Source: an uncultured Bacilli bacterium
GTDB taxonomy: Bacteria > Bacillota_I > Bacilli_A > RF39 > UBA660
DNA: 64,000 nt
Assembly (NCBI GenBank): GCA_934095865.1
Contig: CAKOKU010000003.1
Location: 38,593-102,592 of the forward strand
Direction of reading: 5' to 3'
A program made the position numbers and the translations under genes. This document shows, one piece after another, positions 20,265-32,817 of the stretch. The first letter of the stretch is position 1; each line of letters begins with the position of its first letter. Below the pieces are notes generated by a model. The model was not told the DNA's origin and made no database searches. It worked only from the letters and a program-made list of their open reading frames with translations.

Positions 20265-23078
20265 GTGGCGAGTAAAAAAACCGGAGTAGAATTGGAATTT
20301 AGTATTCTCGATGATGGTTTTACTAAATCTATTAGAGAAATGAATACCGCATTATCATCAATGAAAAAGGAACTTAATCTTGAGAACGAGGTTTTAAAAA
20401 ATTCTGGTTCAACTGTTAATGACTATAAAAATAAATTACAGACATTAAAAGAACAAGAAGAATTATCAAGACAAAAGGTTGAAGAAACTAGAGTAGCATA
20501 CGAAAAAGTTAAAAATATAATGGGTGAAAATTCAGCAGAGGCAGCAAAGTATAAAAATAAACTTACTGATGCGGAATTGGAACATCAAAAGATAACAAAT
20601 GCTATTGATAAAACAGAAAAAGCCTTAGTAGAACAGGAAGAAGCCTTAAAAGATAATGAAAGGAAAAGTCGAGAATTAAACTCTGCATACGGGACATTAA
20701 CAACAACTATAAGCGACCAAAAAAGTCGTTTAGAAAGTTTAAAAAGGCAATATATTAGTACCGTTTTGGAACAGGGAAAAGGCTCTACTCAAGCAAAAAA
20801 TCTAAAAAGTGAAATTAAAAATTTATCAGCAGAAATAAATAATAACGAATCGAAACTTAATTCCGCAACTAAAGAGGTTGAGAAATTTGGAGAAGCCGAA
20901 GAAGATGCGGGAAAAAAATCAATAACCTTTAAAGATCTAATTAAAGCCAATCTATTAAGTGACTTTATTAAATCGGGATTAAAGGAAATTGTTAATCTTG
21001 CAAAATCTATTGGAAGTACGTTTGTAAATATAGGAAAGCAAGCTCTTACAAGTTATGCTGATTATGAGCAACTAATCGGTGGAGTCGAAACTTTGCTTGG
21101 TGCTAAAGGTGCAAAGTCAATTGAAGAATACGCCGAATTAGTAGGTAAATCAGTCGATGATGTAAGAGGGGAATATGCTAAACTAGAACAATCTCAAAAA
21201 TTAGTTGTAGAAAATGCAAATAATGCATATAAAACATCTGGATTAAATGCAAATCAATATATGGAAACAATCACAGGTTTTAGTGCAAGTTTGCTTCAAT
21301 CATTAGGTGGCGATACCATTGAAGCCGCAAAAGTTGGTGATATGGCAGTTACTGATATGAGCGACAATGCTAGTAAAATGGGTACATCAATAGAAAATAT
21401 CCAAAATGCTTACCAGGGATTTGCTAAACAAAATTATACTATGTTAGATAACTTGAAATTAGGGTATGGTGGAACTAAAACCGAAATGGAGCGTTTGCTT
21501 TCTGATGCCGAGAAACTAACTGGTGTTAAATATGATATTAATAATTTAAGCGATGTATATAATGCTATTCATGTTATACAGGGAGAATTAGGAATAACAG
21601 GAACAACGGCAAAGGAAGCAATGTTTACTATTTCAGGATCTGCATCAGCAACAAAATCAGCATGGAGTAATTTAATTACTGGAATTGCAGATGATAATGC
21701 CGATTTCGATCAATTAGTAAATAATTTAATTGATTCATTAATTGGAACAGTAGATGAATCTGGTGAGAGAGTTGGAGGACTATTGAATAATATTCTTCCA
21801 AGAGTAAGCACTATAATTACAGGTATTAGTGATTTAGTTTTATCTTTTATTAATACCGTATTACCAGAATTGTTGGCTCAAATAGGTCCAATAATCATTC
21901 AATTAATCCCACAATTGATGACAACTATAAATACTATAATTTCATCTATTATTACTTATATTTCTACTAATGCCACAAGTATATCAAATACAATTGTTAC
22001 TATCGTCACTCAATTAATTACAATAATTGCGAATAATCTTCCAGGGTTTATTACGGCGATAATTCAAATAATCACTGGTCTAGCACAATGTCTTGGGGAG
22101 CAATTACCTACATTAATTCCTATTATTATCCAGGGACTTATAGATGCAGTAATGGCTTTACTTGATAACATTGATCTTATAATAGATGCAGGAATACAAC
22201 TAATTATTGGTTTAGCAGATGGGCTTATCCAGGCTCTTCCAATTTTAATAGAGAAAATTCCTATAATAATTGATAAGCTAATAAATGCAATAGTCAATAA
22301 TTTACCTAAAATTATTGAAATAGGAATTGTACTTATTATAAAATTAGCAGCAGGATTAATACAGGCGATTCCACAATTGCTTGCAGCAATTCCTAAAATA
22401 ATAGGATCATTGATAGATGGTGTTAAAAAATGGTATAGTAATATATTTAATTTAGGAAAAGAATTATTAGGCAAATTAATAAGTGGAATAGGTGGTATGC
22501 TTGGATCATTAGCAAATAAAGCGAAAGAAATAGGTAGTACTGTAATAAATGGTATTAAAAATGTTCCAGGTCAAATGCTAAATTGGGGTAAAGATATGAT
22601 TAGTGGTCTTGCAAATGGAATTAAATCTATGGCTAATAAAGTTAAAGATGCAGTTAGTGGTATTGCAAATAAAATCAAAAGTTTCTTGCACTTTTCAAGA
22701 CCAGATGAAGGTCCATTGAGAGAATATGAAAGTTGGATGCCAGATATGATCAGCGGATTAACATCTTCATTAAAAAAGGCTAGTCCAGATTTAATTGAAG
22801 AAACAAAGCAAATTGCAAGTTCATTAAATGATGCTATTCATTCGGGTGTATCTACTGATTTGAAATTTGATACAAGCATGTATAATGCTTATTCTAATGA
22901 ATCAAATAGACCAACTAATAATATTACTGATACCTCATCATACGATCCAGGACAAGTTGCACCAATTTATCTAAATATCGAAAACTTTAATAATAACAGA
23001 GAACAAGATATTGAAGATTTATCAGAAGAATTAGAATTTTATAGAATGAAAATCAACTATGGAAAGGGGAATGCTTAA
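20265..23078 (+). CDS. tail tape measure protein
   Basis: 937 aa; coiled-coil N-terminus, long Ile/Leu-rich central repeats; position after G/GT. Confidence 0.9.
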   Translation: MASKKTGVELEFSILDDGFTKSIREMNTALSSMKKELNLENEVLKNSGSTVNDYKNKLQTLKEQEELSRQKVEETRVAYEKVKNIMGENSAEAAKYKNKLTDAELEHQKITNAIDKTEKALVEQEEALKDNERKSRELNSAYGTLTTTISDQKSRLESLKRQYISTVLEQGKGSTQAKNLKSEIKNLSAEINNNESKLNSATKEVEKFGEAEEDAGKKSITFKDLIKANLLSDFIKSGLKEIVNLAKSIGSTFVNIGKQALTSYADYEQLIGGVETLLGAKGAKSIEEYAELVGKSVDDVRGEYAKLEQSQKLVVENANNAYKTSGLNANQYMETITGFSASLLQSLGGDTIEAAKVGDMAVTDMSDNASKMGTSIENIQNAYQGFAKQNYTMLDNLKLGYGGTKTEMERLLSDAEKLTGVKYDINNLSDVYNAIHVIQGELGITGTTAKEAMFTISGSASATKSAWSNLITGIADDNADFDQLVNNLIDSLIGTVDESGERVGGLLNNILPRVSTIITGISDLVLSFINTVLPELLAQIGPIIIQLIPQLMTTINTIISSIITYISTNATSISNTIVTIVTQLITIIANNLPGFITAIIQIITGLAQCLGEQLPTLIPIIIQGLIDAVMALLDNIDLIIDAGIQLIIGLADGLIQALPILIEKIPIIIDKLINAIVNNLPKIIEIGIVLIIKLAAGLIQAIPQLLAAIPKIIGSLIDGVKKWYSNIFNLGKELLGKLISGIGGMLGSLANKAKEIGSTVINGIKNVPGQMLNWGKDMISGLANGIKSMANKVKDAVSGIANKIKSFLHFSRPDEGPLREYESWMPDMISGLTSSLKKASPDLIEETKQIASSLNDAIHSGVSTDLKFDTSMYNAYSNESNRPTNNITDTSSYDPGQVAPIYLNIENFNNNREQDIEDLSEELEFYRMKINYGKGNA

Positions 23079-23767
23079 TGAATTATTTTATATTTATCAA
23101 GAATGGTAAGATGTACGATTCAAGGGACTATGGAATAGGTTGCGGTGGCTTCCCCGATATAGTTATTCCAAGAAAAAGAATAACAATTGAGTCATTACCT
23201 GGAAGGAGTGGATCCTTAACAAGTACAGACGATTGTTATGATAGTTATACAAAAGCCATTGAATGTTACATGGAGGACGATGTATATAAAGATTTATCCT
23301 GGTTAAGTGGTAGTGGCAAGTTAGTATTATCAAATGAGTTAGAACGTGAATATGATGTGACTTTGAAAAATAATATTGAATTATCACAAATTGCTACATA
23401 TTGGCGAAACTTTATTTTAAATTTTGAAGTTCAGCCATTTAAAAAGAGTAGAGATAAAAAGACTCTAATCTATCGAGATAAAGAATTTATGTTTAGAATC
23501 GGTGGCAATGCGAGAGCATTACCAATTATCTATTTAACAGGTACTGGTGATATTGATTTAACTATTAATGGAAAAACATTTAAAATAAAAAATTTAAAAA
23601 CTACTATTATGATTGATTCCGAGTTACAAGTTGTGATGGAGGGTGAGGAAAATGCTCTTCCTAAAACAAATGGCGACTTTCCAGAATTAATTCCAGGTCT
23701 TAATAAATTTCAAATTACAGGTAATTTATTAAATATTAAGATCAAATATCAGGAAACTTATTTATGA
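23078..23767 (+). CDS. distal tail protein (Dit, Sipho_tail family)
   Basis: 229 aa immediately after the tape measure (ATGA-type overlap). Confidence 0.7.
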   Translation: MNYFIFIKNGKMYDSRDYGIGCGGFPDIVIPRKRITIESLPGRSGSLTSTDDCYDSYTKAIECYMEDDVYKDLSWLSGSGKLVLSNELEREYDVTLKNNIELSQIATYWRNFILNFEVQPFKKSRDKKTLIYRDKEFMFRIGGNARALPIIYLTGTGDIDLTINGKTFKIKNLKTTIMIDSELQVVMEGEENALPKTNGDFPELIPGLNKFQITGNLLNIKIKYQETYL

Positions 23768-25575
23768 TAAGAATTTATAAAAATGATTGTGATGATTTTA
23801 ATAATAATGGTCTTGGTATTCTATCAGACTTTAAAACATCACCTAAGATTAAAGAATCATTAAATGGTAGTTTTGAATTATCTTTTGATTATGCCTTAAA
23901 AGGGCAAAATGCTGAATATCTTGTTGTAGATAACGTTATCAAGGCACCATACGATAGCAGTTATCAGTTATTTAGAATCAAAAAAGTAAAACCTACTTTA
24001 ACAAAGATAAATGTATATGCGGTGCATATATTTTATGATTTATCAGAAAACTTTTTAATGGACGTTGCACCAACTAAAAAGACAGGAGTTAATGCTATTG
24101 CTTGGCTTTTAGAAAATGCAATGTTTCCGACAAAGTTTAGTGTAACTGGTGATTTAATTCCAGATAATTCGGCAAGATATGTTCGTAAGAATATTGTCGA
24201 TGCTATTTTAGGAGCCGATAACTGTGTTGTTAAAAGATGGGGTGGCGAAATTGAAAGAGATAATTTTAGAATTATCTATCATAAACAAAGAGGCGAAGAT
24301 AAAGGTGTTTATATCAAACATGGTAAAAATATCAAAGATATTGAAATATCAATTGATTTCACCTCTGTTATAACTCGTGTAGTCCCACAGGGTGCTAACG
24401 AGTTATTATTACCAGAATATTATGTCGATTCACCATTGATTAAAACTTATAGAAATCCAATTGTTGCTAAATATGAATTTGGCGATATTAAGGTGGATGA
24501 AGATACGACAGAAGAACAGGCTTATCAAAAATTAAGAGATGCAGCCAATGAATTATTTACTAAACAGGGAATAGATAAGCCATCAATTAGTGTTAGAGTC
24601 AATTGGCTAGAACTATCTAAAACAGAAGAATATAGGTATAAATATAGTAATTTTGAGTCTGTAAGACTTGGTGATACTGTTACAGTACAAGCATTAGGAT
24701 ATGAATATAAAATTCGTGTTATTACAGTTGAATATGATTGCTTATTAAATAGATATACATCTTTTGAAATTGGTGATCCTAAAGCCGATTATGTATCTAA
24801 TCAAACTCAAAGTATTACTTATGAGATTCAAAAGAGCACGTCTAGTTTATTAGATCAAGCAAGACAAGCAGCAACGGCTTTGATTAATAACGGATTTGGA
24901 GGACATGTTAGAATCTATCCAGATAGAATTTTAATAATGGATACCGAAGACGAATCAACAGCACGTAATGTTTGGCAATGGAACTTAAATGGATTTGCTC
25001 ACTCTAAAACGGGAATTAACGGCGATTATGGGACCGCAATAACTATTGATGGTCAAATAGTAGCCGATAAAATCACATCAGGAACAATGGATGTTCAAAG
25101 AATCAATGGACTAGCAACAGAACTTGGAAGAATCAATGCTTCAATAGAATTAAATGAGAATAATATTCAAGCATGTGTTAAGGCATCTGATTTCAATCAT
25201 GATAAGCAGATATTAAATGAAAATATGGAATTATTAAAGCAACAACAATTAGATCTAGTTGCAACAAGTGAATCATTATCAATCAATATTAGATCATTGG
25301 TTGAAAATGGTATGAATCGATTAAAGAATACTATGTTTGAAATTACAGATGAAGGTATGAGAATTGCAAATGATCAAGACGAATTCAATGCTTTATATAA
25401 TAACAAAGGATCTTATTTATATTCTTATGACAAGTTAGTTGCTAAATATGATAAAGACGGAGGCGAGAGTCCCGTTTTTGCAGTTACAGAAGAATTTAAT
25501 ATGTTAGGTATTAAATTTGAAAAAGAAATCGAAAATATCGAACAAGTTATTATGGGACATTGGCAAGGATGGTGA
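23764..25575 (+). CDS. tail-associated/prophage-tail endopeptidase-family protein (Tal)
   Basis: N-terminus 'MIRIYKND...FNNNGLGILSD...ESLNGSFELSFDYALKG' is typical of Siphoviridae Tal N-domains. Confidence 0.75.
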   Translation: MIRIYKNDCDDFNNNGLGILSDFKTSPKIKESLNGSFELSFDYALKGQNAEYLVVDNVIKAPYDSSYQLFRIKKVKPTLTKINVYAVHIFYDLSENFLMDVAPTKKTGVNAIAWLLENAMFPTKFSVTGDLIPDNSARYVRKNIVDAILGADNCVVKRWGGEIERDNFRIIYHKQRGEDKGVYIKHGKNIKDIEISIDFTSVITRVVPQGANELLLPEYYVDSPLIKTYRNPIVAKYEFGDIKVDEDTTEEQAYQKLRDAANELFTKQGIDKPSISVRVNWLELSKTEEYRYKYSNFESVRLGDTVTVQALGYEYKIRVITVEYDCLLNRYTSFEIGDPKADYVSNQTQSITYEIQKSTSSLLDQARQAATALINNGFGGHVRIYPDRILIMDTEDESTARNVWQWNLNGFAHSKTGINGDYGTAITIDGQIVADKITSGTMDVQRINGLATELGRINASIELNENNIQACVKASDFNHDKQILNENMELLKQQQLDLVATSESLSINIRSLVENGMNRLKNTMFEITDEGMRIANDQDEFNALYNNKGSYLYSYDKLVAKYDKDGGESPVFAVTEEFNMLGIKFEKEIENIEQVIMGHWQGW

Positions 25576-25581
25576 TAGATA

Positions 25582-27207
25582 GTGAATGGTGGGACAGCAG
25601 TATTAGTCAAAAGCGGTAGATCTAACTATGGTAGTGGATTTAACATTAACTTATATGTTTATCATAAACAAGTCTATCAAGATATAGCCAATAACTACAC
25701 TAGAGTCGGTTTAGGAATGTATGTTCAAACACCAGGAACAAATTATACGATTGCATGGACTGATTTTGGTTCTTATATTGGAATTAGTGGTGTCGGAACA
25801 AATAATTTTTCAGCAGGAGTTAACTACCAAGGTGGAACTATTTGGCTTATTACCAATCAGGAATTTAATGTTTATCACAATTCAGATGGTACAAGATGGA
25901 TAGATATTATATGGTCTTGGGGAGTTAATTCATCTTGGGGACAATTCGTTAAACCTAGTGGTAGTTTTGGAACAGGATTAAATAGAATACCAAGAACATC
26001 ATCAGTATCATGTACTGATTTTAATATCGGTAGTGCAGCAACAATAAATATTAATAGAAATTCAAGTTCATTTACTCATACACTTACTTATTCGTTTGGT
26101 AATCAATCAGGAACGATTGCTAATAAAACGGGAGCCACGAGTGTTGGATGGCAAACACCAACATCTTTATTCTCACAAATACCAAATACAACAAGTGGAT
26201 GGGGAACAATAACATGCTATACATATTCAGGTGATACTTTAATAGGTACATCAACTTGTAGATTTAATGCTTATGTTGTTAATAGTAATCCTAGTGTATC
26301 AGTATCAATAGTTGATGCAAATGCAAAAACGAAGAATTTAACAGGTAATGAAAATAAACTTGTTAAATATTATAGTAATGCAAAAATTACTATAAATGCG
26401 ACCGCATTAAACTCATCATCTATCAAAAGTTATTCTATAAAATGTGATGATGGTAAAAATTCTACATCATCATCAGCAACGTTTAATAAAGTTGAAAGTG
26501 GTAAGTTTACAATTGTGGTAACAGATAGTAGAGGACTATCCACGACTCTAAACGTTTCTAAAACATTGATAGACTACATTAAGTTAGCCTTTACAGACGT
26601 AAAAGTTAAGAGAGAGTCATCTACATCGTCAAAAGTATATTTAACTTATACAGGGCAGTATTTTAGTAAATCATTTGGTGAATTATTAAATACATTATTA
26701 GTTCGTTATAGAACTAGAATAAAAGATGGAACTTGGAGTGCATATAAAGAATTAAATCCAACAATTAATGATAAAACTTTTTCACAATCCAATTTCTTAA
26801 TTGGCAGTGATTTTTCATATCATAATAATTATGAATTTGAAATTGTCGCATCTGATAAATTAATAAGTGATAGTGAAACACTTATTAAAAGAGATATTAA
26901 AATGGGTGAGGGATTATTTGAAATAAGAAAAGAATTATTTGGTATTCATGGAACATTTGAATCCGATTCTAAACCGTTAACTCAAAAGGATCTAAATAGT
27001 TGTATTTCAAGAACATATTTTGCAACATGTATAAAATGTCATAATACACCAAATAATAGCGAATTTGGTTATTTACTTAATATATCGAGAAATGGAACAG
27101 ATGAAAGAGAATTGTATAACAAACAATTCTTTTTTGATGGGACATCTAACGATATTTATGTAAGAACTATGAATAATAAGTCCTGGTTAAATTGGATAAA
27201 AGTATAG
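25582..27207 (+). CDS. baseplate/host-specificity structural protein (DUF859-like N-terminus)
   Basis: 541 aa, GTG start, Ser/Thr/Asn-rich beta-type sequence downstream of Tal. Confidence 0.55.
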   Translation: MNGGTAVLVKSGRSNYGSGFNINLYVYHKQVYQDIANNYTRVGLGMYVQTPGTNYTIAWTDFGSYIGISGVGTNNFSAGVNYQGGTIWLITNQEFNVYHNSDGTRWIDIIWSWGVNSSWGQFVKPSGSFGTGLNRIPRTSSVSCTDFNIGSAATININRNSSSFTHTLTYSFGNQSGTIANKTGATSVGWQTPTSLFSQIPNTTSGWGTITCYTYSGDTLIGTSTCRFNAYVVNSNPSVSVSIVDANAKTKNLTGNENKLVKYYSNAKITINATALNSSSIKSYSIKCDDGKNSTSSSATFNKVESGKFTIVVTDSRGLSTTLNVSKTLIDYIKLAFTDVKVKRESSTSSKVYLTYTGQYFSKSFGELLNTLLVRYRTRIKDGTWSAYKELNPTINDKTFSQSNFLIGSDFSYHNNYEFEIVASDKLISDSETLIKRDIKMGEGLFEIRKELFGIHGTFESDSKPLTQKDLNSCISRTYFATCIKCHNTPNNSEFGYLLNISRNGTDERELYNKQFFFDGTSNDIYVRTMNNKSWLNWIKV

Positions 27208-27218
27208 GAGGATAGAAA

Positions 27219-27557
27219 ATGCTTATAGAATTTCCTAGAGGCGATTATAAATCGTTATCGATAACTATTACCGGTTATGTAGGAAAAATTGAGGAGTTGT
27301 ATTTCACAGTAAAAGAAAATGCGAATTCAAGTAATGTTATCTTGCAAAAGAAAATTGGTGATGGGATCGAGTATTCAGAAGAAATCAAAAAGTATGTTTT
27401 AAAGTTCGAGCCTGGCGATACAGACAAATTAGAAATGAATAAAATATATGGTTTTGATTTTGAGGTTGTAGCAGAAAAGAAAAAACTAAAGAAAACATTT
27501 ACAGGGCAATTTCATTTAACAAATGAATATACCCATACGAAAGATGAGGTGGAGTAA
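27219..27557 (+). CDS. small tail-fibre-associated protein
   Basis: 112 aa, AGGAGGA RBS, stop adjoins the fibre gene start. Confidence 0.45.
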   Translation: MLIEFPRGDYKSLSITITGYVGKIEELYFTVKENANSSNVILQKKIGDGIEYSEEIKKYVLKFEPGDTDKLEMNKIYGFDFEVVAEKKKLKKTFTGQFHLTNEYTHTKDEVE

Positions 27558-29255
27558 ATGGAAGATCTTAATTTATCATTCGACGATATAGAGTTTTATA
27601 AAGGTACAAGTTTTTATGTTGCGGGTACTTGGAACAACACAACAAAGTATCATAATAACTCTAGCAGAATCGATGTAGTATCTCATAATGGTAATTCTTA
27701 CACGGCTTTAAAGGATAATACAAATATAGAGCCCGGAACAGATGACACAGTATGGCAATTGATGGCAAAAGCTGGTGATGCTGGAACGATTGAGGTTGGG
27801 ACAGTAGAAACAGTTGCAGCAGGTCAAAAAGCCACAGTAACAAACGTAGGAACGGCTCATAAAGCAAGATTAAACTTCAAAATACCAAAGGGCGAAGATG
27901 GCTCAACAGAAATTACTAATATCGACGAATTAGAAAATTATGTATATTATGGTGTAAGACGTAGAGTCAATCAAAATAGTTCAAGTGCCTGGGAAAGAAC
28001 AGGAAGTGGAATTGGTAAAATAGCAAATGCTACTAAAAATGGCGATGCAGTAGTTAATGACTTTGATAATATTTATCCATGGTCAGATATAATTACTTGT
28101 AATGTAGATCCAAGCACAAATGAGGTCAAAGCATTTATTGGTGATCCAACCTTTGATTTTACAGGTAATAATGGCGAGGTAATGACACGAATTCCAGAGT
28201 TTTATTGGAAACGTTATGTAAAAGATGGATACGAATATATCAACATTTCAAGACACCATTTAGCAGATTATATTAAAAGTCCAGAATTCTTTGTTGGAAG
28301 ATATGATGCAAGTTATGATGGAACATCGTTACATAGTGTTACTGGTCAAGTTCCAGAGGTACTAAGAAATATTGCAGCATTTAGATCTTTGGCAAAAGCA
28401 AAAGGTGATAAATGGTGTCAAATGGATTATCATTATTTCTTATTGCAAATGCTATATTTAGTAGAATATGCTGATTATAACTCACAAAGTAAACTTGGTA
28501 ATGGTATTGTAGGATGTAGAGTTAGTGATGCTGATAAGGCATTAGTTGCAGAGAACAATACAAATAGAATTATTATTAATACAAGTGCTGCTAATAGTTT
28601 TATTGTAGGTCAGCAAGTGAGCATAGGTACAAGTTCAGCATGGAATTGGAGTGTAGCAAAAAATAGAACAATTTTAAGCAAAGAGGCTTACAATAGTGGT
28701 GGAATAACAGGTACCGCAATAACCTTTGATGGAGATCCAGTAAATATTGCTTTAAATAACGTTTTATGGACGACAGGACAAAAATCAGGGCAATGTGATA
28801 GTTTAGGAATGAAATCAGGATGCTTGAATAATGATAGTAAACATGCTATAATATATCGTGGAATCGAGAATATATTCGGTAATATATGGCAATTTGTTGA
28901 TGGTATTAATATAAAAGAAAATCAGTCTTATGTATGTACTAATCCAAGTGAATATGTATCTGATACTTTTGCAGCTCCATATAAGGAGTTAGGATATGCA
29001 AATTCAAACACAAATGGGTATGCGATGTCACTTGGATATGATAAAGAAAATCCTTTATTTGCATTAACAACAGAAGTTGGAGGTGCAAGTTCTACTTATA
29101 TGACTGATTATTATTATCAAAATACTGGGAATAGAATTGCTTTGGTCGGCGGCAATTATGATAATGATGCTACTGGTGCCGGCTTGTGGTCTTGGAATAT
29201 GAACAATACATCTAGTAATACGAATTACAACATCGGGGCTCGTCTACTTATATGA
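27558..29255 (+). CDS. tail fibre / receptor-binding protein with C-type-lectin (FGE-sulfatase-like) C-terminal domain; putative DGR target
   Basis: 'IYRGIENIFGNIWQFVDG' plus terminal 'NRIALVGGNYDNDATGAGLWSWNMNNTSSNTNYNIGARLLI' match the CLec fold used by DGR variable proteins. An RT gene lies 156 nt downstream. Confidence 0.75.
   Translation: MEDLNLSFDDIEFYKGTSFYVAGTWNNTTKYHNNSSRIDVVSHNGNSYTALKDNTNIEPGTDDTVWQLMAKAGDAGTIEVGTVETVAAGQKATVTNVGTAHKARLNFKIPKGEDGSTEITNIDELENYVYYGVRRRVNQNSSSAWERTGSGIGKIANATKNGDAVVNDFDNIYPWSDIITCNVDPSTNEVKAFIGDPTFDFTGNNGEVMTRIPEFYWKRYVKDGYEYINISRHHLADYIKSPEFFVGRYDASYDGTSLHSVTGQVPEVLRNIAAFRSLAKAKGDKWCQMDYHYFLLQMLYLVEYADYNSQSKLGNGIVGCRVSDADKALVAENNTNRIIINTSAANSFIVGQQVSIGTSSAWNWSVAKNRTILSKEAYNSGGITGTAITFDGDPVNIALNNVLWTTGQKSGQCDSLGMKSGCLNNDSKHAIIYRGIENIFGNIWQFVDGINIKENQSYVCTNPSEYVSDTFAAPYKELGYANSNTNGYAMSLGYDKENPLFALTTEVGGASSTYMTDYYYQNTGNRIALVGGNYDNDATGAGLWSWNMNNTSSNTNYNIGARLLI
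29079..29252 (+). other. variable-region-like segment (last 58 codons of fibre gene)
   Basis: 19 of 58 codons are NAY (10 Asn, 6 Tyr, 3 Asp), plus many ACN/AGY codons. This is the composition expected of AAY codons diversified at adenines. Confidence 0.55.
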
Positions 29256-29411
29256 AAAAATAAATTTTATTACATGTCATCTTCCTTACCACTTGGTAAA
29301 AATTAGTCGTTCTGGGCTGGGCTAGTAGGTTTATCTCTTGAATATAGAATTTCTCGAAAACTCGGCAGACAAATATAAGAATTCCAGAAATATCAGAGGA
29401 AAAGATCAAAA

Positions 29412-30470
29412 ATGAAAAGAGTAGGTAATATTTACGAAAAAATAATTCAATTAGGAAATATTGAATCAGCAGTAATGCATGCCGCAAAGGGTAAATCAAA
29501 AAGAAAAAACGTAGAGAAAATATTAGATTCCCCAACTTATTATGCTATGCAAGTTCAAAAGATGCTAAAAGAACACACTTATATTCCATCGCCTTATGTT
29601 GAAATGAAAATACTGGACGGAGCAAGAAAAAAGGAAAGGATTATATATAAGCCTCAATTCTATCCTGATCAAGTAGTACATTGGGCTTTGATGCTTCAAC
29701 TGGAGCCAATACTTATGAAAGGAATGTATGAATTCTGTTGTGCATCAGTTAAAAATAGGGGAATATTGTATGGTAAAAGGCATCTTGATAAGATCCTGGT
29801 AGATGATCGTAAATATACCAAATATTGCTTGAAACTTGATGTAAAAAAGTTTTATCCATCAATTGATAAGACTATATTAAAACAAAAGTTTAGAAAAAAA
29901 ATAAAAGATCGAGAAACATTATGGCTTATTGATTTAATAATTGATAGTTCTGATGAGGGTGTTCCGATTGGAAATTATACATCACAATGGTTTGCTAACT
30001 TTTATTTGAGTGATTTGGATCATTTTATTAAAGAAGAATTAAAAGTTAAATACTATGTTCGTTATATGGACGATATGGTGCTATTTTCTAATAATAAAAA
30101 GCAATTGCATAAAATAAAATTATCAATCGATGATTTTCTAGCAAAAGAACATTTAAGAATTAAAGAAAACTGGCAATTATTTAAAACAGATAGTCGTCCG
30201 TTAGACTTTTTAGGATATAGATTTTATCGAGGGTATTCTACTTTAAGAAAAAGTAACTTTTTACGAATCAAAAGGCGAGCAAAGAAAATATCGAAAAAGA
30301 AAGAACTTAATTTTCATGATGCGGCATCAATGTTATCCTATTCTGGATGGTTGAAACATTGTAATTCATACAATTATCAGCAAAAATACATTAAGCCGTA
30401 TATCAATTACAATAAATGTAAGGAGGTCGTTAGTAATGAAAGTAAGAAGCGACAGGCTTCCTCAAAATGA
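29412..30470 (+). CDS. reverse transcriptase, diversity-generating-retroelement (DGR) clade
   Basis: 'VPIGNYTSQWFANFYLSDLD' (IGxxxSQ rather than QGxxxSP), 'YVRYMDDMVLF', 'LDFLGYRF', tail 'SYSGWLKHCNSYN'. Colinear with Bordetella phage BPP-1 Brt as I recall it. Confidence 0.85.
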   Translation: MKRVGNIYEKIIQLGNIESAVMHAAKGKSKRKNVEKILDSPTYYAMQVQKMLKEHTYIPSPYVEMKILDGARKKERIIYKPQFYPDQVVHWALMLQLEPILMKGMYEFCCASVKNRGILYGKRHLDKILVDDRKYTKYCLKLDVKKFYPSIDKTILKQKFRKKIKDRETLWLIDLIIDSSDEGVPIGNYTSQWFANFYLSDLDHFIKEELKVKYYVRYMDDMVLFSNNKKQLHKIKLSIDDFLAKEHLRIKENWQLFKTDSRPLDFLGYRFYRGYSTLRKSNFLRIKRRAKKISKKKELNFHDAASMLSYSGWLKHCNSYNYQQKYIKPYINYNKCKEVVSNESKKRQASSK

Positions 30471-30945
30471 TTTTGAAATCAATAATATTCAAGGCAACGA
30501 ATGCAACGTTGTCTTTTTTGATACTAAAAATCATAAAGAGGAAAAAGATGAAAATGAAAATATATCATACGAATATGATGCATACAATATCAAAACAACT
30601 TATAGGAGCACGTTAGGAGCAGATATAAGCAAAAATTACGAAAAATGGTACAATTATGCTATCCAGTATGAAAAAGATGTTCTAGCAACAGAAATAAGGG
30701 CGAAAAGAAACGAATTATTGAATGAAAGCGACAAAGAATTGGCTATTGACAGATTTTCATTTGAATTTCCCGAAGAAATAACAATGTTAAACATCTTACA
30801 AGTAATCAAAAGTTTTTTCTCTGTTTTATCAAGTATAACTAATGGTAAATGGGCTAAATATCGTCAGCAATTAAGAGATATTACTAAACAGGAGGAATTT
30901 CCATATAATGTCGAGTTCCCTAAAAAGCCCACAGATAATGAATAA
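30436..30945 (+). CDS. tail-fibre assembly/chaperone-like protein (XkdW/Tfa-like)
   Basis: 'IRAKRNELLNESDKELAIDRF' resembles the R..R..LL..SD motif of fibre assembly proteins. Start overlaps the RT 3' end by 35 nt. Confidence 0.45.
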   Translation: MKVRSDRLPQNDFEINNIQGNECNVVFFDTKNHKEEKDENENISYEYDAYNIKTTYRSTLGADISKNYEKWYNYAIQYEKDVLATEIRAKRNELLNESDKELAIDRFSFEFPEEITMLNILQVIKSFFSVLSSITNGKWAKYRQQLRDITKQEEFPYNVEFPKKPTDNE

Positions 30946-31641: not shown

Positions 31642-32775
31642 ATGGAAGATGAAAAAAATGTTGAAATCGTAGAAGAAAATACAGAATTAGAAATCCAAAC
31701 TACATTTAATGAGGATGGATTAGATGTATTAGTCGAAGACGGTACAATAGAAAATGAAAATGCAGAGGAGCCAGAAGGTATTGGAGCCGGCGAAAACTTT
31801 TCAATGAGAACAAGTAAGCCAGGTGCAGGTAATAAGTTCTTTATTACACGAAGCAGAGGCGGATATTCTACATGTATTCAGGGAAGCCCAACAGATAGTA
31901 AATGTAATGTACTTGCTAACTGTGTAGGATATGCTTGCGGACGTTTCAATGAAATAATTGGAGCAATGAAATATCCATCATTAAATTGTAATGCAGAAAA
32001 CTTTATTGAAAGAGCAAGAAATACCTATGGATTAGAAATATCACCAGTTCCTACATTAGGTGGTATTATGGTATGGCAAAAAGGATCTACATTATCAGGT
32101 GGTGATGGTGCAGGACATGTTGCTATCGTTGAAAAGATTATTGATAGTAATACTATTTATACAAGTGAATCAGGTTATGGATCAAGTGCTTTCTGGAATA
32201 GTACAAGAAGCAATAGTAATGGTAGATGGGGATTAGGTAGTGGTTATACATTTAGAGGATGTATTGTTAATCCCACTATTGGTAAAGTAACCGCTCCAAC
32301 ATCTAATAGTGCGAATCCATTTCCAGGTGTATCTGATGAGGAACTAGCAAGACGTGTTTGGTCCGGTGAATTTGGAAACGGCACAACTAGACAAGAGAGA
32401 TTAGGATCAAGATATGCAGCAGTTCAAGCACTTGTTAATAGAGGTGTAGGAAAGCCAGGAACAACAAGTAATGTACCTTATGCAGGTGTATCTGACGAGG
32501 AATTAGCACGTCGTGTTTGGCGAGGCGAATTTGGAAATGGAGCAACTAGAAGACAAAAACTAGGATCAAGATATGCAGCAGTTCAAGCACTTGTTAATAG
32601 AGGTGTAGGAAAGCCAGGAACAACAAGTAATGTACCTTATGCAGGTGTATCTGACGAGGAATTAGCACGTCGTGTTTGGCGAGGCGAATTTGGAAATGGA
32701 GCAACTAGAAGACAAAAACTAGGATCAAGATATGCAGCAGTTCAAGCACTTGTTAATAGAGGTGTAGGTAGATAA
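31642..32775 (+). CDS. endolysin: CHAP peptidase/amidase + three CW_7 (Cpl-7-type) cell-wall-binding repeats
   Basis: CHAP Cys 'NCVGYACGRF' and His 'GAGHVAIVE'. Three copies of 'VSDEELARRVW.GEFGNG.TR...LGSRYAAVQALVNRGVG'. ATG 31642 after GGAGG. Confidence 0.85.
   Translation: MEDEKNVEIVEENTELEIQTTFNEDGLDVLVEDGTIENENAEEPEGIGAGENFSMRTSKPGAGNKFFITRSRGGYSTCIQGSPTDSKCNVLANCVGYACGRFNEIIGAMKYPSLNCNAENFIERARNTYGLEISPVPTLGGIMVWQKGSTLSGGDGAGHVAIVEKIIDSNTIYTSESGYGSSAFWNSTRSNSNGRWGLGSGYTFRGCIVNPTIGKVTAPTSNSANPFPGVSDEELARRVWSGEFGNGTTRQERLGSRYAAVQALVNRGVGKPGTTSNVPYAGVSDEELARRVWRGEFGNGATRRQKLGSRYAAVQALVNRGVGKPGTTSNVPYAGVSDEELARRVWRGEFGNGATRRQKLGSRYAAVQALVNRGVGR
32404..32768 (+). repeat. 159-bp perfect tandem repeat (~2.3 copies) encoding CW_7 modules
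   Basis: 32404-32562 and 32563-32721 read identical. A partial third copy runs to 32768, and a diverged copy lies upstream (~32310-32403). Confidence 0.9.
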
Positions 32776-32781
32776 GAAAAA

Positions 32782-32817
32782 AGGTAATGACACAAATGTC
32801 ACTACCTCTTTTTTTTT
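32782..32817. terminator. bidirectional terminator between endolysin and the leftward moron
   Basis: AGGTAATGACA-CAAA-TGTCACTACCT (11-bp stem, one mismatch) flanked by A-run and T9. Confidence 0.7.

Follow-up and report, generated by a model that had tools for sequence, protein, structure and literature searches.

A diversity-generating retroelement without Avd in a Bacilli prophage that has probably lost one repeat period by recombination between its variable and template repeats

Introduction

Diversity-generating retroelements (DGRs) are defined by a template repeat (TR) and a variable repeat (VR) that differ only at adenines of the TR. This work deals with one such element, carried by a prophage between the genes for a tail fibre and a fibre-assembly chaperone, in a stretch of 64,000 nucleotides from an uncultured Bacilli bacterium (GenBank assembly GCA_934095865.1, contig CAKOKU010000003.1, positions 38,593 to 102,592 of the forward strand; the whole 64-kb stretch is called here the window, and coordinates refer to it). 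In the DGR of BPP-1, homing needs a VR-type 3' end and a hairpin. Deletion of the upstream RNA strand that pairs with the spacer abolishes reverse transcription, that is, cDNA synthesis, in the same system (bioRxiv 10.1101/2023.10.23.563531). Related to the diversity of these elements, Wu et al. 2018 (PMC5758913) described an Architecture A, which consists of a core of TR and reverse transcriptase (RT) without accessory gene and accounts for 29% of DGRs, and they also noted a Lineage 3 devoid of avd. Besides, several RNA motifs, the RT motifs, adjoin RT genes, and Weinberg et al. 2017 (PMC5737381) speculated that some of them serve DGRs.

The window shows an RT gene close behind a tail-fibre gene, with only one copy of the repeat. 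Comparison with sequences that encode the same RT suggests that the element is probably an ordinary Avd-less DGR, with the order target-TR-RT, that lost one period of 248 nt by a real deletion and was recently inactivated, recombination between VR and TR being the most likely cause of the inactivation.

Intact cassettes and the hybrid repeat of the window

The 352-aa RT of the window is encoded without any change in many public assemblies, and 10 of these contigs were listed and compared. Eight of them have a fibre of 567 aa and a gap of 395 nt holding VR, hairpin and TR, and the remaining two have a fibre of 564 aa followed by a gap of 156 nt, as in the window. The cassette of the intact contigs is ordered as follows: fibre with VR, GC hairpin, terminator-like and promoter-like sites, leader, TR of 107 nt, spacer of 156 nt and RT, with a single VR and a single TR adjoining the RT gene. 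The VR begins 248 nt ahead of the TR in all eight contigs. Since its sequence differs in each of them and the VR/TR mismatches fall without exception on TR adenines (115/115), the element with this identical RT is, as judged from these alignments, one that diversifies in nature.

A wider set of 160 related loci was also collected for comparison. Where enough upstream sequence is available, the usual layout is a fibre ending in the VR, about 130 nt, a TR of about 110 nt, about 150 nt and the RT, with no space for an accessory gene. When the two closest relatives were aligned with the window, its fibre end matched their TR, not their VR, and its gap of 156 nt matched their TR-to-RT spacer. Counts of collapsed and intact forms were sought elsewhere as well: viral_contigs gave 0 and 1 matches, the first viral pattern being unspecific because it would match plain TRs, and two scans of metagenome_contigs gave no matches.

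The window differs from the intact sisters by the loss of exactly one 248-nt VR-to-TR period, and the copy that remains is a hybrid. It begins with the invariant anchor GCTTTGGTCGGCGGC, which is common to VR and TR, and its 5' part (29139..29191, + strand) is of VR type; with respect to the TR of the sisters, the changes found after the anchor are AAT>GAT, AAT>GAT, an extra codon (GCT), AAT>GGT and TAT>TCT, so that the four substitutions are all at TR adenines and all within the 5' 53 nt. From 29192 onwards the sequence is identical to the TR of the sisters and its flank, through the stop codon (the 3' part being 29192..29255, + strand) and the whole spacer. The repeat tail is accordingly the TR-type CTACTTATATGA, the VR-type tail being CTTCTTAAATACCAGGATTAA, and position 29246 is a diagnostic A where the VRs have T, which places the crossover somewhere in 29192-29245. 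As the TR reads into an in-frame stop, the fusion yields a fibre ending in ...GARLLI, whereas the 567-aa fibres of the intact sisters end in ...GARLLKYQD. The 3' half of the repeat, which is changed in 19/19 of the intact VRs seen, is unchanged in the window, and in the four collapsed alleles there is one change in total among about 80 adenine positions of this half, namely a single A>C in the otherwise template-type 3' half of contig L168.

A deletion bridged by cDNA of the DGR itself was considered and discarded, because about 20 unmutated adenines in the 3' 54 nt of the hybrid indicate that this part is not derived from cDNA. As a separate observation, the AAT AAT AAT run of the repeat (29154-29177; fibre proteins P0014 and P0001) varies in length by whole codons, the window having one codon more and P0014 (566 aa) one codon less. 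Slippage by three bases in AAC repeats has been posited for bRT, the RT of BPP-1 (PMC12875486), and the length changes in the AAT run fit such a process.

The fibre gene that holds the hybrid copy (27558..29255, + strand) is an open reading frame (ORF) of 565 aa assigned to the tail protein family phrog_5302 of PHROGs, and its stop codon is separated from the RT start by 156 nt. The first-pass annotation of the window had given the ORFs, this gap and an overlap of 35 nt at the RT end with the coordinates found here, and its count of 19 NAY codons among the last 58 of the fibre (10 N, 6 Y, 3 D) was reproduced by recounting. The AAY share is 17% in these 58 codons and 9.7% in the rest of the gene, a mild enrichment. 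The idea that this end is a VR written from an AAY-rich template did not stand, given that everything from 29192 on is template, joined in frame to the fibre. Regarding the fold, the C-terminal 438 residues of the fibre have a sole significant match, the TaqVP protein (PDB 5VF4; E 4e-4, probability 1.0), with a TM-score of 0.37-0.41, 12% sequence identity and a model pLDDT below 55 in the variable part. The proposal of a DGR-type target with a C-type-lectin-like fold may be right on this basis, at a TM-score of about 0.4 and with the variable part poorly modelled. A Pfam search of the window fibre protein found nothing; PF18454, the Mtd N-terminal domain, is present in some fibre homologues.

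Segments absent from the window and the spacer RNA

The 248 nt that separate the two forms can be read in the intact sister L161, where they include the VR tail, the GC hairpin, a terminator-like hairpin, a promoter-like site (TCGATA-17-TAAAAT) and the leader. The GC hairpin (GGGGGC-GACCA-GCCCCC) is kept throughout the clade, its stem showing compensatory changes in relatives, and together with the VR tail it forms the string CTTCTTAAATACCAGGATTAAGTGGGGGAATGGGGGCGACCAGCCCCC in the intact form. The leader upstream of the TR, GGGATTTGACATGTAG, is strongly conserved. Full cassettes can be told by the strings GTGGGGGAATGGGGGCGACCAGCCCCC and, for the leader, GGGATTTGACATGTAGAG, both of which belong to the segments lost in the window. 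The GC hairpin is absent from the window even when up to 3 mismatches are allowed, so that neither of the DGR target-site signals, the VR-type 3' end and the GC hairpin downstream of it, is found there; the leader strand is not present in the window either, and no promoter-like or terminator-like sites lie between its fibre and RT genes. Two further observations concern this region in relatives: a conserved G run (GTGGGGGAAT...) stands ahead of the post-VR GC hairpin (L161:5605-5660 and equivalent positions), and many relatives carry after the GC hairpin a second, AT-richer hairpin with a T-run, which looks like the terminator of the fibre gene.

The pairing partner of the leader is found at the spacer start, where the window keeps the downstream strand TTACATGTCATCTTCC (29270..29285, + strand). 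In 25 distinct relatives the two strands form a helix of 14 bp in which 94% of the cells are paired and 7 pairs show compensatory changes; none of 500 shuffles (0/500) reaches the observed score or the observed paired percentage, and shifted registers peak at 66% paired. A shuffle test based on helix length was not discriminating (mean 9.2 vs 8.0) and was replaced by counting pairs on an alignment of fixed register. Directly after this strand there is a stem-loop, TTACC-ACTT-GGTAA, with adenosines behind it (29286..29302, + strand), recognised by comparison with the BPP-1 'cPRT Stop'. The duplex between upstream and downstream flanks of the template RNA that belongs to that layout is not found in the window, where the spacer structure is present and the upstream strand is absent. 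Besides, the Rfam family RF03021 (RT-18) matches 93 nt of the gap (29287-29379) with 61.9 bits, above the gathering score of 41.3 (E 2e-10). The whole gap (29256..29411, + strand), which has the same sequence as in the intact sisters, is, as far as sequence and covariation tell, the spacer (Sp) RNA region of a DGR.

The reverse transcriptase and the search for a second repeat and for Avd

The RT gene (29412..30470, + strand) is intact, and its product is, from its sequence and its structure match, a member of the DGR clade. It carries VPIGNYTSQWFANFYL and YMDD, and its IGxxxSQ motif reads IGNYTSQ. The best match among solved structures is bRT of BPP-1 (8ub7, E 5.6e-34, residues 2-317 against 3-313), followed by a group II RT with E 2.8e-10, and the protein matches the phage RT family phrog_1423 with E 1e-112. 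Adenine-specific TR/VR pairs are found in nearly all relatives of this RT with enough flank. An identity as retron, group II intron or defence RT (DRT, Abi) was rejected, because the scores stay far under the curated cut-offs of those families: 80 bits vs 300 for group II (TIGR04416), 75.5 vs 200 for Drt3a, 61.8 vs 235 for retron St85 and 33 vs 550 for Drt5. In the phages collection, the RT has distant matches only (67-70% DNA identity).

The TR/VR pair that defines a DGR is not found in the window, which has one copy only. This result comes from three scans of the 64 kb on both strands, an ungapped adenine-tolerant diagonal scan, a short-word blastn self-comparison filtered for A-specific mismatches and a scan by local score with its seeds taken from the sequence ahead of the RT, none of which found a second copy; the latter two recovered clean TR/VR pairs in most related loci and are thus sensitive enough. 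The string GCTTTGGTCGGCGGCAAT, which the first-pass annotation had taken as invariant, occurs once in the 64 kb even at 3 mismatches, and a remote or cryptic TR inside the window was discarded with these searches. Concerning Avd, a hidden Markov model (HMM) was built from the ORFs beside distant RT relatives and verified as bAvd (PF22296) by Pfam. This HMM does detect Avd next to the distant relatives L056-L079, and it found none in the six frames of the window nor within 10 kb on either side of the loci of the close clade; an Avd hidden in small ORFs was discarded too, since neither the HMM nor Pfam matched the neighbours of 112, 115 and 105 aa.

Most of what had been read from the letters alone on these matters is upheld: the DGR-clade RT with IGxxxSQ and YMDD, for which bRT is the best match and the retron, group II and Drt models stay below their cut-offs, the lack of a second repeat copy, the absence of Avd, and a gap of 156 nt too short for a TR. 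The opinion that the lack of Avd is unusual had to be given up in view of the avd-less DGRs described in the survey of Wu et al. cited above.

Proposed origin and present activity of the fused element

In the intact element VR and TR are direct repeats of about 107 nt placed 248 nt apart. A crossover between them, or slippage, would remove the 3' half of the VR, its tail with the GC hairpin and the terminator-like hairpin, and in the same event the promoter-like site, the RNA leader and the 5' half of the TR. What would remain is one hybrid copy in frame with the fibre and, directly behind it, the region of the spacer RNA and then the RT gene. The event would be recent, because the RT is intact and identical to that of the active copies.

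The fused element most likely no longer diversifies the fibre, since there is no separate invariant template left, the target has neither VR-type 3' end nor hairpin, and the RNA is without the upstream strand of the duplex around the TR. The near-unchanged 3' half of the collapsed alleles, as opposed to that of the intact VRs, agrees with such inactivity. Among the explanations offered earlier, a decayed DGR that kept an intact RT was the right one, in the light of the hybrid copy and of the intact cassettes in contigs with the identical RT, and a remote or cryptic TR becomes needless, as the sequence after the fibre stop is the own 3' flank of the TR plus the spacer, just as in the sisters. 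The RT had also been placed within the late operon without a cassette of its own, which holds for the deleted copy only; the intact form has the terminator-like hairpin, the promoter-like site and the leader before the TR.

Real deletion, assembly artefact and other explanations

The main rival reading is an assembly artefact: the genome would have the full VR-hairpin-TR cassette, and the assembler would have jumped from VR to TR through shared k-mers, losing 248 nt. This is unlikely, with a chance that is nevertheless large enough to be taken seriously. VR and TR are near-identical, the VR can be heterogeneous within a sample, and several points weigh against a real and inactivating deletion. 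All the compared sequences are assemblies derived from metagenomes. The collapsed contigs that end in pure TR (L170, L174 and L175) are SPAdes assemblies with a coverage of 4.1-4.6x, and at about 4x a hypervariable repeat could be mis-joined. The collapsed share of the listed contigs with identical RT, about one fifth (2/10), is high for a deletion. Moreover, every collapsed copy found keeps an intact RT nearly identical to that of its intact sister, which fits very recent events and artefacts equally well, and the inactivity is argued by analogy with BPP-1, which has Avd, whereas the clade of the window is Avd-less.

Other data are difficult to reconcile with an artefact. A Logan contig (run ERR7738216) is 100% identical to positions 22877-29628 of the window and passes unbroken straight through the hybrid copy. 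Logan contigs are built from unitigs of k=31, and a separate TR at full depth would branch or break the contig at the shared stretch. Records from NCBI, ENA and Logan contain the same fibre protein and the same allele, the contig DNA for the exact fibre of the window having been recovered for the Logan contig only. Besides, real reads must be the source of the k-mers in which the TCT codon of VR type is continuous with at least 20-30 unmutated bases of template type, and all the intact VRs seen are mutated downstream of the TCT junction. Similar losses affect unrelated DGR phages, too. Between L158 and L157 the identity is 99.9%, but L158 lacks 236 nt (L158:9700-10003 against L157:9480-10003), and the switch lies within a shared stretch of 31 nt, far under the read length; L093, compared with L089 and L097, shows a VR-TR collapse with about 1.19 kb missing. 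The deletion in the window thus seems to be a true DNA event and not an assembly error. It can be added that L105, L099 and L094 may be further VR-TR collapses.

It might also be thought that the fused copy is alive, the 3' end of the fibre transcript, the spacer RNA and the RT making up a self-templating diversifier with a single repeat or, in a weaker version, that DGR phages repeatedly lose tropism switching through VR x TR fusion, a natural off-switch; both are very improbable. A working DGR of this kind, in which the 3' end of the fibre mRNA plus the spacer would be the template RNA and the cDNA would home into the same copy, is hardly credible: RT and spacer RNA are intact, read-through from the fibre puts the hybrid repeat right before the spacer, and the L168 allele has its one A>C in the 3' half, but a rate of 1 change per about 80 adenine positions in four collapsed alleles stands against changes there in every intact VR. 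In addition, the 3' end of the copy is of TR type, the hairpin is missing and so is the leader strand of the closing duplex, whose loss abolishes cDNA synthesis in BPP-1, and the scaffold would erode without an invariant template. There is as little to be expected from an RT that uses a template or target elsewhere in the genome or that has taken another role such as defence. The search covered 64 kb, which leaves room for a copy elsewhere in the host genome; however, the normal site of the TR is accounted for by its 3' half and flank (29192-29255) before the spacer and the RT, the intact sisters carry their single VR and single TR beside the RT, there is no further repeat copy within the window, and the RT does not come near the cut-offs of the retron, Drt and group II models. 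The loss of one repeat period by recombination between VR and TR is consequently retained as the preferred explanation.

Template arrays in relatives and neighbouring features of the prophage

In a subclade whose RTs are 76-81% identical to that of the window, the fibre VR is followed by 3-10 template-like cassettes, one spacer and the RT (L083:8148-9853; L006:8559-9853; L095:8396-9855; L002:9032-9852; L090:411-1877). The cassettes, of 98-101 nt each and repeated with a period of about 150-160 nt, have conserved ends (TGTCGGCGG...GGTGCTCGAC) and a TR-type tail, and each carries a leader of its own for pairing with the spacer, but their interiors are very different. The VR of L006 derives from a cassette other than the one adjacent to the spacer, with 9/11 mismatches at A; two cassettes of L002 are related as original and A-mutagenised copy (10/10 at A), the copy being apparently outside the fibre ORF; and the VR of L083 seems, by eye, to be a mosaic of two cassettes. 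The impression is that of a DGR provided with a library of alternative templates. Literature searches, limited by the library available, found no description of arrays with multiple TRs.

Downstream of the RT, the gene for the tail-fibre assembly chaperone (PF16778 by Pfam; 30436..30945, + strand) shares 35 nt with the 3' end of the RT gene, an arrangement that is the same in the intact sisters. The endolysin gene contains, at 32317-32793, three tandem repeats of 159 nt with 100/87/76% identity, and its orthologues in sister contigs carry the Pfam domains CHAP and CW_7. Among sister contigs with the identical RT the endolysin measures 271, 324 or 377 aa, and the number of repeats therefore varies between otherwise near-identical phages. 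In L163 (9940-13059) there is a lysis module, a serine recombinase and a repressor-like helix-turn-helix gene, followed by sequence 99.9% identical to positions 1-853 of the window, so that the beginning of the window seems to lie within the prophage, directly beyond its lysogeny genes. The right end of the prophage seems to be near 33.3 kb of the window, and the sequence downstream differs between contigs.

Comparison with known systems

The intact element is, as its sequence indicates, a DGR of the known Avd-less type with the order target-TR-RT, and the copy of the window would be a deleted derivative of it, which is why no TR/VR pair is found there. Within the whole close clade, intact sisters included, this order and the lack of any accessory gene within 10 kb agree with Architecture A; the window keeps the gene order but has no separate TR. 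The VR x TR fusion would be a simple deletion mediated by repeats, similar to those that homologous recombination or replication slippage produce between direct repeats, in which one period is lost and the hybrid consists of the 5' part of the first repeat and the 3' part of the second. Full-text literature searches, limited by the library, found no paper in which DGRs are described as being lost by VR x TR fusion. The case illustrates how a DGR can be lost: one crossover between its own repeats does away with template, target signals and RNA leader at once, and the RT gene still looks perfect. For annotation, it follows that 'orphan' DGR RTs beside AAY-rich target ends should first be examined for such a fusion or for a collapse in assembly, and that remote templates or new RT functions should be invoked only afterwards.

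As for BPP-1, its RT and that of the window belong to one clade (8ub7, E 5.6e-34, with about 315 residues in colinear order), the intact sisters show adenine-specific transfer from TR to VR at the 3' end of a tail fibre, and a GC hairpin stands directly after the VR in the intact relatives. On the other hand, no avd lies beside TR or RT, the TR of the intact sisters follows the target immediately and has a promoter-like site and a leader to itself, the spacer RNA is of the Rfam type RT-18 and not RT-10 as in BPP-1, and VR and TR are fused into one copy in the window. For the target, the only significant fold match is TaqVP, the DGR variable protein of Thermus aquaticus with a C-type-lectin fold (TM-score 0.37-0.41). 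Concerning the RNA, the full model of RF03021 is matched at 29287-29379 above its gathering score; placing RT-18 as the probable spacer RNA of this Avd-less clade is a modest new point beyond the proposal of Weinberg et al., and so is the putative leader-spacer duplex, supported by covariation, in a clade without Avd. In the BPP-1 'cPRT Stop', too, a segment ahead of the TR forms a duplex with the spacer, and a stem-loop and adenosines come next; the covarying duplex indicates that this layout exists also without Avd.

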